Source of the DNA: Escherichia coli
Lineage (GTDB): Bacteria > Pseudomonadota > Gammaproteobacteria > Enterobacterales > Enterobacteriaceae
DNA length: 64,000 nt
Direction: 5' to 3' (one strand)
Assembly (NCBI RefSeq): GCF_024298765.1
Contig: NZ_CP101210.1
This document shows positions 61,001 through 64,000 of this stretch, in pieces; position 1 is the stretch's first letter; each line of letters opens with the position of its first letter. The position numbers are program-made.

Positions 61001-64000
61001 GGCGATGCCGATGTTATTAGCCGGATTCGCGCCACGCTCTATTCCGGCGGCAGTCAGATTCAGGGGGCGCAGGCATTAGAGGTGTTGCGTGGTCTGGTGC
61101 TCGCGCCAGTGATGCACGCGGTGCAGGCGGGGGTATCTGAACGGTTGCTGGCTTTGCTTAACGGCGGCGCGGTGGCGGAAGTGAAAAGCGCCGTCATTGC
61201 CAATGCACAGTCGAAGGTATTGATTGTAGAGTTTCATCAGCCGATTGCCGCCAGAGTGCTGGAAGAGGCGCAGAAACTCGGTGCCTTGCCTTACCCGGTT
61301 GGTGCAGAGTCGAAATATGAAATCCCGCCGCTCTTTTATCGACTTTCCGGAACGTTTCGCCAGGCGAATCCGCAGTTAGAACATTGCGCGATTCGCATTA
61401 ACCCAAATCGCAGCGGTGAAGAGACGATATTGCGGATCTTGCGTGAAAGTATTGCCAGCATTTAATCGTTGTAAACGATATTTTTGAAAAGAATGCAGAA
61501 ACAAATACGCCCTCGGGTAATCTCGAGGGCGTCAGGCAATTAAACCGGCGTTAGCCGATTTCTGTCAATGGCTTACTGTGCAGTCGGACCGCAACCGCCA
61601 ATGATTTTAGAAATAGAAATTGCCGGGTGCAGCAGGTAGTCGTAAGAGCAGTTCTTATCACGGTTTTCAATATGACCAGTACATGCAGTTAACGTAGCCA
61701 GTACTGCGCCTACCAGTGCAACTTTAATAAATTTGTTCATTTACATTCCCTATGTATTATATATTAATTAATATTCATTGATTATATGAATATAAGCAGA
61801 CTGCTCATTAAGAACGATACAGGAATATTCAATTAGCGTCAGTGAGCGATTGATTTAATTTTGTCAGTCGCTGTAACGGTGAATATAACCCATTAGCAGA
61901 CAATATTTATTAAGGGGGTATGTTTTTATCTGCTGAATATATAAAGAGAGTTGTAAACGAAAAAGGCCAGACTTCTCTGGCCCTGGTTAAATTAATGGTT
62001 AGAGAACCAGTTCAATTTATCGCGCAGGCCAACAACCCGACCAATAATAATTAGCGATGGACTGTTCATTTGCTGCGCCAGTTCGCCCAGCTGCGTGAGC
62101 GTACCGTCAATCACGCGCTGCGTGACTGCCGTTCCGTTTTCGACAATTGCCACCGGCATTTCACCAGGCATACCGTATTCAATCAGCTTTTGCTGAATAG
62201 TTGCAGCCTGATTCAGCCCCATATAAAACACCAGCGTCTGTTTTTCTGCCGCCAGGTTTTCCCAGTCCAGCTCGCCCCCGGTTTTTAAGTGTCCAGTAAT
62301 TAAGCGTACGCTCTGGGCATAATCGCGATGCGTGAGCGGAATACCCGAATAGGCAGAGCAACCAGAAGCTGCGGTAATACCCGGAACCACCGAGAATGGA
62401 ATACCCGCGTTGCACAGTGTTTCCAGCTCTTCTCCGCCACGCCCGAAAATAAACGGATCGCCGCCTTTCAGACGCACCACGCGTTTACCTTTTTGCGCTT
62501 CCCGCAGCAGGATCTGGTTAATCTCTTCCTGCGGTACGCAGTGGTATCCCGCGCGTTTGCCGACGAAAACGCGATCAGCATCGCGGCGTACCAGATTCAT
62601 AATATCGTCAGAAACCAGACGGTCGTAGACCACCACATCTGCCTGCTGAATTTGTTGCAGACCTTTCAGTGTCAGCAGCCCGGCATCGCCCGGACCTGCA
62701 CCAACCAGCACCACTTCACCGCGATGGTCGAGCGGTTCATTGATTAACTGTTCGGTGGTTTCAGTAATGGCTTTCTGATCGTTGTTGGCCAGCGACTGCG
62801 CCAGGCGGTCGTTAACGAACAGTTTTTCCCAGAAACGGCGACGCTCACCCATCGTGGCGAACTGCTGTTTTACTCGCCCGCGTAATTGCCCGGCGTATTT
62901 CGCTACCTGGCCCAGATGTAACGGCAGCAGTGATTCGAGTTTTTCGCGCAACAGGCGCGCCAGAACCGGAGAGGTGCCGCCAGAGGATACCGCTACCATG
63001 AGCGGTGAGCGGTCAATAATCGACGGCATAATAAAGCTGGCGGCTTTCGGCGCATCGACCACGTTACAGAAGATGCGACGAGCTTCAGCGGCTTCGCTGA
63101 CGCGCTGGTTAAGCGCGTCATCATCCGTCGCTGCAATCGCCAGCCAGCAGGTGTCGAGAAGGCTTTCATCAAATGGCCCTTCGACGAGGGTTAACATGCC
63201 TGCATCTGCCCATGCGGTGAACTGTGGAATAAACGCTAATGCATTCACCGTTAAGCGAGCGCCTGCGTCTAACAGCAACCTTGCTTTGCGTTCCGCGACA
63301 TCACCACCGCCGACAATCAGACAGTCGCGATCGCGTAATTGGCAAAATATAGGCAAATGATCCACGTAAAAACCCCTTAGTAATTAACCGGCAGCCGTTT
63401 CAGTTTGATTAAATTTGTCCGCAACCGGACGATTCGCTTTCGGCGTAGCATACCAATAACCCAATCCCATGAATACGGCACCCGATAAAGTATTACCCAG
63501 CGTCACCCACAGCAGGTTATGACCAATGCCCGCCAGCGTGTAGGCTTCGCTGTGGTTGCCGAACCAGGAGAGTGCGAACAGCGTCATGTTAGCGATGGAG
63601 TGCTCGTAGCCGGACGCGATAAATGCCAGCAAACACCACCAGATAGCGATAAATTTCGCCGCCCCTTCAGTGCGCAGCGCCATCCAGATAGCCAGACAAA
63701 CCAGCCAGTTACACAATGCACCTTTGAAGAACAGTACCATTGCCGGTGCAGTGGTTTTAGCCAGCGCGACGGAGTGAACGATGCTGGTATCGACCGGCAG
63801 CAGGCTACCGCCGCCCCAGCTATAAAGCATGGCAACGAAGACGGAACCGACCAGGTTACCCAGCCAGGTTTGCGGCAGGATTGCCCACATTTGCCCGTGG
63901 CTGATGGTGCCCGCTTTCACCCCAAAGGTGAGGAACATGGTGTGTCCGGTGAACAGTTCAGAACCAGCAATAATGACCAGCGTTAAGGCGATACCAAAGG

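Follow-up and report, generated by a model that had tools for sequence, protein, structure and literature searches.

In Escherichia coli K-12 MG1655, the fructoselysine operon lies between two conserved neighbours (cysG-yhfL-frlA-frlB-frlC-frlD-frlR-yhfS), whereas in the 64,000-nucleotide stretch of E. coli DNA analysed here (the window) yhfS and yhfL face each other across a short spacer. This raises the question of whether that spacer is an ancestral site which frl never occupied or the scar of a deletion that removed the operon. An initial annotation, made from the sequence alone, had put the five-gene frl operon of K-12 between yhfL and yhfS, and the K-12 annotation bears this out. It had also placed the yhfS stop at 61465 and the yhfL stop at 61573, with about 100 bp between them, and the list of open reading frames (ORFs) gives a spacer of 107 bp at exactly that place. 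The features of the locus, in window coordinates, are the following:

60380..61465, plus strand: yhfS, which closes the yhfZ-yhfS cluster and encodes a putative PLP-dependent aminotransferase; stop codon included, from the ORF list

61466..61572, no strand: the spacer between yhfS and yhfL, 107 bp, intergenic between convergent genes; the unoccupied frl site

61467..61496, no strand: a 30-bp segment found in all empty-site alleles, in whose place the frl+ alleles have a 5,242-bp frl segment

61573..61740, minus strand: yhfL, encoding a small DUF4223 lipoprotein, from the ORF list

61992..63365, minus strand: cysG (siroheme synthase), which forms the conserved flank next to yhfL, followed by nirC

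The gene names yhfS and yhfL, as given in the initial annotation, are backed both by Pfam and by the RefSeq/PGAP annotation of a record that is 100% identical (E. coli strain 104, from chicken, China, NZ_CP029164.1), which agrees on the gene identities. YhfS matches YhfS-like_C (E 8e-45) along with an aminotransferase fold, and YhfL matches DUF4223 (E 5e-38) and is 100% identical in amino-acid sequence to its K-12 counterpart. Upstream of yhfS, the window continues with yhfT, yhfU, php, yhfW, yhfX, yhfY, yhfZ and trpS. Over 12 kb, the named strains closest to it belong to B2, and their identity is only ~97%. At the DNA level yhfS is 91.4% identical to that of K-12, as compared to 96-98% for the neighbouring genes.

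Alignment of the junction with K-12 by blastn located two sharp breakpoints. Homology on the yhfL side ends at window position 61497 (96.6% identity; position 4692 of the K-12 locus), and on the yhfS side it restarts at 61466 (92.7%), one base past the yhfS stop; the sequence between these points measures 5,242 bp in K-12 and 30 bp in the window. A tblastn search of the 64-kb window with the K-12 proteins FrlA-D and FrlR (E<=1e-3) gave no match, and a blastn search of the same window with the K-12 5,242-bp insert gave no DNA match and no frl remnant, so that the absence of frl from the window, as first proposed, holds at both the protein and the DNA level. FrlA is a transporter, FrlB the fructoselysine-6-phosphate deglycase, FrlC the 3-epimerase, FrlD the 6-kinase and FrlR a GntR-type regulator, and from these functions we infer that the strain of the window would be unable to use fructoselysine or psicoselysine, compounds that come from heated food. 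With the frlABCDR region of K-12 (Wiame et al. 2002, 2004, as cited), the window has in common the interval cysG-yhfL...yhfS-yhfZ-trpS, the flanking genes and the yhfL terminator. K-12 additionally carries 294 bp upstream of frlA, the operon of five genes itself and, between frlR and yhfS, a spacer in which one BoxC-like and one REP-like repeat lie; in place of these 5,242 bp the window has its 30 bp of spacer.

The empty arrangement is common. The contiguous yhfS-yhfL junction of the window is present in 2,107 of 5,426 complete E. coli genomes (39%), and what had been described as a strain-level difference in Amadori-product catabolism is confirmed as regards the absence of frl and shared by a large part of the species. 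In 3,297 genomes, 80% or more of the K-12 frl segment was found, the remaining ones matching only its repeat elements, while a sensitive blastn search for frlBCD found these genes in 3,300 of the 5,426, always on the chromosome and, except in one genome, in a single place. In 3,293 of the frl-bearing genomes frlA is joined to yhfL, and about 20 complete genomes fit neither state. Among the frl-less genomes listed, the match to K-12 ends exactly where that of the window does. As far as sampled, then, there is one site and one breakpoint, and since frl is a single-copy operon that nearly always sits beside yhfL, an empty-site genome is not expected to hold it elsewhere. Named genomes without frl include Nissle 1917, F11, 81009, IAI39, the type strain ATCC 11775 and O145 RM9872, and those with frl include K-12, HS, IAI1, O111, O103 and O157:H7; Nissle 1917, F11 and 81009 we take to belong to phylogroup B2, and IAI39 to phylogroup F.

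The evidence that separates an empty site from a scar comes from related species. A scan for YhfS with one genome per GTDB species returned 80 loci, 47 of which were annotated with K-12 proteins; E. fergusonii, E. marmotae, E. ruysiae and the GTDB representative of E. coli were not among the loci returned. In E. albertii, E. whittamii, Escherichia sp. MOD1-EC7003 and 'E. coli' SCPM-O-B-8794, a divergent lineage, yhfS adjoins yhfL or cysG with no frl between them, and the same frl-free adjacency was found in at least eight Citrobacter species clusters, an Enterobacter sp., Klebsiella spallanzanii, Buttiauxella, Cedecea, Superficieibacter and others. The one annotated locus of the 47 in which frl was found is that of 'E. 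coli' E69, itself a divergent lineage. Furthermore, the 107-bp spacer of the window aligns end to end with those of E. albertii, E. whittamii, MOD1-EC7003, SCPM-O-B-8794, IAI39 and four other E. coli, and the segment 61467-61496 is conserved in the E. albertii and E. whittamii spacers. Outside Escherichia the spacers are 34-130 bp long, each with a terminator-like hairpin of its own, and those of Citrobacter and the other genera gave no alignment with the spacer of the window, having in common with it the gene adjacency and a terminator hairpin; because they are not alignable, orthology outside Escherichia is a matter of adjacency.

The 30 bp are absent from the K-12-like allele and yet shared with E. 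albertii, and since a deletion could not regenerate them, the allele of the window is of the ancestral type. That an ancestor with a K-12-like frl+ allele lost 5.2 kb by illegitimate or repeat-mediated deletion is a history that might be favoured by the majority status of frl+ genomes in E. coli (3,300 of 5,426) and by a literature that speaks of the loss or 'dispensing' of frl (PMC5996543, PMC3893438), but the presence of these same 30 bp in E. albertii and E. whittamii effectively refutes it, and we give it next to no credence. The sampled outgroups are, moreover, all empty, the listed frl-less genomes have one identical breakpoint, which independent deletions would not give, and the ends of the K-12 insert lack flanking repeats: a search there for direct or inverted repeats gave scores no better than those of shuffled sequences. 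The initial annotation had suggested that the junction might tell an empty site from a scar, and outgroup adjacency together with spacer orthology resolves it toward the former. We thus regard it as probable that the spacer is an ancestral site never occupied by frl, that the frl+ alleles come from an old single insertion, and that the strain of the window carries the empty allele. The change would accordingly be a gain in the frl+ lineages, with the empty allele reaching this strain by vertical inheritance.

The 30-bp segment itself was compared with the whole K-12 insert on both strands by Smith-Waterman alignment, which gave 8 at the junction and up to 11 elsewhere and was not significant. 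By eye, 61467-61496 resembles the K-12 sequence upstream of frlA (ATATTTTT, with ATTTAA in common); this likeness was likewise not significant by Smith-Waterman and was discarded, and with it a clean insertion with a 6-bp duplication, four other empty alleles having scored no better.

The age of the insertion can be judged from E69. Its flanks differ from those of K-12 by ~5-10% (identities of 94.5% for cysG, 90.1% for yhfS and 93.3% for yhfT), its frl genes are 91.0-95.7% identical to those of K-12, and both junctions are identical; since frl has diverged to the same extent as its flanks and sits at the same junctions, the insertion appears to be old and single. The same insertion junction is found in K-12, E69 and, on the yhfL side, O157:H7. 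In the proposed sequence of events, a 5.2-kb segment would have inserted just past the yhfS stop, replacing ~30 bp of spacer in the strains that became frl+, and would have brought frlABCDR together with a promoter region of its own, the K-12 version also carrying the BoxC-like and REP-like repeats. This single, old insertion would later have been kept as a presence/absence polymorphism and moved between backgrounds by recombination, with the strain of the window representing the empty allele, whose spacer would be an ordinary convergent intergenic region with the yhfL terminator as its main element.

Such movement is visible in neighbour-joining trees of the two flanks, in which frl+ and frl- alleles interleave: the empty-site genomes ZF8-1 and Z1323HEC0399 lie, on the cysG side, ~1% from the frl+ O157:H7 strain EDL933, and the interleaving indicates that recombination has moved both states between backgrounds. 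It follows that the lineage of the window might itself once have been frl+ and have later acquired an ancestral-type empty allele from another E. coli, exchanged through homologous recombination in the cysG and yhf flanks. Besides the interleaved trees, this history would agree with an insertion that predates the diversification of E. coli, as the equal divergence in E69 implies, and with the unusual diversity of yhfS, which suggests imported alleles. It adds, however, a step without which the window can be explained; the frl-less IAI39, Nissle 1917, F11, 81009 and ATCC 11775, which belong to B2 and F, fit vertical retention; and the literature treats the absence of frl as a hallmark of B2. 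We therefore consider it unlikely for this strain and keep to vertical inheritance of an allele that was never occupied.

The K-12 frl segment has no atypical composition, with a G+C content of 53.8% (52.4% for the window) and GC3 values of 0.60-0.66 like those of its neighbours, and its annotation contains frlABCDR only and no mobility genes; neither its host-like G+C nor its gene content positively marks it as horizontally transferred. By the marks looked for (mobility genes, terminal repeats and base composition), the segment is neither a mobile element nor a genomic island. Outside E. coli, FrlB has a patchy distribution, which speaks for a gain, the next full-length proteins being those of a Serratia sp. 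(84%), Sodalis sp. C49 (83%), Paenibacillus (73%) and Clostridia (55-66%). The Serratia operon is at an unrelated site. In Sodalis sp. C49, frlABCDR adjoins trpS in the syntenic tsgA-trpS interval; Frl proteins of E. coli and Sodalis are 60-83% identical, and the core neighbours TrpS, Rpe and Dam 82%, 85% and 71%.

These observations bear on a third history, in which frl would have resided in the tsgA-trpS interval of Enterobacterales since ancient times, being kept by some E. coli and lost repeatedly elsewhere, with all empty sites descending from one old deletion. The Sodalis operon directly beside trpS, as in O157:H7, the agreement of the Frl identities with those of the core neighbours and the host-like G+C of frl all speak in its favour. 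Against this, it needs a loss in every sampled genome of Citrobacter, Enterobacter, Klebsiella, Buttiauxella, Cedecea and E. albertii, the Serratia copy is at an unrelated site, and Sodalis, without cysG, yhfL and yhfS, has a different junction. We judge it very improbable, more so than a replacement of alleles, and even under it the allele of the window would be older than the species rather than a strain-level deletion.

The polymorphism as such has been published. Fang et al. 2018 (PMC5996543) found the fructoselysine transporter and the frl operon missing in phylogroup B2, and in their models growth on fructoselysine or psicoselysine was predicted for 0-3% of B2 strains versus 69-91% of other groups. 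In a 2025 preprint (bioRxiv 10.1101/2025.09.14.675865), the absence of frl is termed 'a hallmark of B2 strains', with reference to Monk et al. 2013. This B2/ExPEC absence (PMC5996543; Monk 2013 as cited in the preprint) is the same polymorphism as that of the window, and the junctions of the B2 strains Nissle 1917, F11 and 81009 are contiguous and identical in kind to the window's. These B2/ExPEC papers treat gene content only, with genes described as 'missing' or 'dispensed', whereas the analysis of the junction is from the present work.

A second instance is EHEC O145:H28, in which Cooper et al. 2014 (PMC3893438) described a strain without frl that keeps an 'eight gene cluster' missing in O157 and read this as a loss specific to O145. 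The arrangement is that of the window, and O145 RM9872 matches the frl segment at its repeats only. While the O145:H28 paper (PMC3893438) reads the absence as a loss specific to O145, the empty alleles found here near O157:H7, those of ZF8-1 and Z1323HEC0399 on the cysG side, carry the ancestral-type spacer, and any loss in an O157-like background would therefore have been a replacement of one allele by another, not a deletion.

For the window itself, the absence of frl is an ordinary and well-documented strain difference. The polymorphism is common and already described, and what is added here is its direction: the comparison of junctions and spacers points to the empty state as the original. 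Few metabolic differences separate E. coli phylogroups as well as the presence or absence of frl, which feeds models of gut niche partitioning between B2/ExPEC and other E. coli, and a pathway that B2 was said to have 'dispensed with' would be recast as a gain in the frl+ lineages.

Between yhfL and trpS, two clusters occur in different combinations. K-12 has both frl and the eight-gene yhfS-yhfZ cluster, the window has yhf only, and in O157:H7, the reciprocal of the window, frlR abuts trpS and yhfS-yhfZ are absent. We suggest tentatively, and with slightly less than even confidence, that the absence of frl in B2 and its relatives is primitive, that frl entered once before the diversification of E. 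coli and has since remained a polymorphism common to Escherichia lineages and redistributed by recombination, and that frl and yhfS-yhfZ are stackable or alternative cassettes. If this is true, so lasting a polymorphism would point to balancing selection, dependent on niche, acting on Amadori-product catabolism. Recombination between BoxC elements was considered as the source of the O157:H7 frlR-trpS junction and rejected, K-12 having no BoxC downstream of trpS.

Finally, the spacer was noted at the outset to contain a hairpin, and the terminator scan placed a terminator-like site there on the minus strand (61532..61507), in a region whose predicted fold is better than those of all 200 shuffles (z ~ -4, both strands). 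Rfam was searched with the spacer and the adjacent sequence, with no hit at E<=1. The two structures are:

61507..61532, minus strand: predicted intrinsic (Rho-independent) terminator hairpin of yhfL, 9 pairs of which 7 are G-C, with the tail ATTTGTTTCT; from the terminator scan and the fold

61544..61559, minus strand: a second small hairpin in the yhfL 3' region, AUCGGC-UAAC-GCCGGU; from the centroid fold

On the minus strand the terminator reads ACGCCCUCGAG-AUUA-CCCGAGGGCGU followed by AUUUGUUUCU and lies 40 nt past the yhfL stop; over 700 bp, the scan found three such sites versus 0.5 expected. On the plus strand no U-tract follows the hairpin, which would therefore be at best a weak terminator for yhfS. 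The flank in which the hairpin lies is common to alleles with and without frl. In the terminator helix, 97% of the cells are paired over 13 Escherichia alleles, two of its pairs having compensatory changes, and in the second hairpin 93.6% are paired, with compensatory changes in two of six pairs (e.g. G-C to A-U). Taken together, the two hairpins have 95.9% standard pairs and four compensatory pairs across these 13 alleles, all slid controls remaining below 50%. By its shape and this conservation, as read from the sequence, the element at 61507-61532 is the predicted intrinsic terminator of yhfL.

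The region compared in O157:H7 EDL933 carries the arrangement reciprocal to that of the window, namely frl without the yhf cluster rather than yhf without frl, while K-12 carries both. In EDL933, trpS directly follows frlR and the entire 8-gene yhfS-yhfZ cluster is absent, matching what Cooper et al. 2014 describe as an 'eight gene cluster absent in EcO157' (PMC3893438). The two regions compared are:

L087, 5860-7726: frlR-trpS region of O157:H7 EDL933 (NZ_CP124740.1)
Window, 53766-61465: the region with which it was compared

The O157:H7 trpS-frlR junction departs from K-12 immediately past the trpS stop, and recombination between two BoxC elements, considered as the source of this junction, does not explain it. 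In the EDL933 record, frlD is annotated as a pseudogene with an internal stop.

An frl operon was also found in Sodalis sp. C49, beside trpS-gph-rpe-dam, in an interval syntenic with E. coli tsgA-trpS, and its orientation there is that seen in O157:H7.

L088, 6603-12604: frlABCDR of Sodalis sp. C49 (CP163303.1)

The Sodalis Frl proteins are 60-83% identical to those of K-12, a range similar to that of the adjacent core proteins. The motif CATCATATGTTGTTATATTCATCAT, located 5' of frlA, is common to Sodalis sp. C49 and K-12 and is a candidate FrlR operator.

Genomes that lack frl match the K-12 frl segment only at two repeats in the frlR-yhfS spacer, and these matches occur at several places per genome.

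L001, 9785-9935: frlR-yhfS spacer of K-12, containing the repeat CCCCTCACCCTAACCCTCTCCCCAAAGGGGCGAGGGGA and a palindrome

We take CCCCTCACCCTAACCCTCTCCCCAAAGGGGCGAGGGGA in this spacer to be a BoxC-like repeat and the palindrome to be REP-like.

Beside the indel, yhfS (window 60380-61465) was found to be far more variable among E. coli strains than the neighbouring genes, with the window DNA being 91.4% identical to that of K-12, compared to 95.7-98.8% for yhfT, yhfU, php, yhfW, cysG and yhfL. Across genomes labelled E. coli, yhfS differences reach up to 11%, and still the protein remains ~96% identical. Old alleles or imported tracts are both possible origins of this divergence.

Two of the genomes labelled E. 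coli belong to divergent lineages, each being its own GTDB species representative and diverging by 5-14% from E. coli proper throughout this region:

L003: E69 (CP089930.1), frl present
L005: SCPM-O-B-8794, frl absent

E. fergusonii, E. marmotae and E. ruysiae were absent from the 80 loci returned, as was the genome that represents E. coli in GTDB.

As for the distribution of frl among phylogroups, an mSphere 2024 pangenome paper counts the degradation of fructoselysine/psicoselysine as 'lower phylon-exclusive', in a passage that ties these genes to phylogroups B2 and D (PMC11774025). As worded in that passage, this association appears contrary both to Fang 2018 (PMC5996543) and to the direct counts across complete E. 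coli genomes.

Elsewhere, the window differs from K-12 by two larger segments and several small indels. The envZ-pck segment includes a two-gene module on the minus strand, and the feoC-rpnA insertion is an IS3-family-like element:

31101-31887: envZ-pck gap, 787 bp vs 43 bp in K-12
31455-31772, minus strand: RelE-family toxin-like protein, 105 aa, envZ-pck module
31100-31396, minus strand: HTH (HTH_3/HTH_31) antitoxin-like protein, 98 aa, envZ-pck module
21262-22573: insertion between feoC and rpnA, 1,312 bp relative to K-12
22119-22523, minus strand: orfA of the IS3-family-like element, HTH, 134 aa
21265-22116, minus strand: orfB of the same element, rve integrase core, 283 aa

The small indels are probably REP-type intergenic repeats:

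35621-35688: hslO-yhgE, 68 bp more than K-12
20144-20359: near rpnA/bioH, 216 bp vs 10 bp in K-12
about 16186: gntT-malQ, 64 bp present in K-12 only
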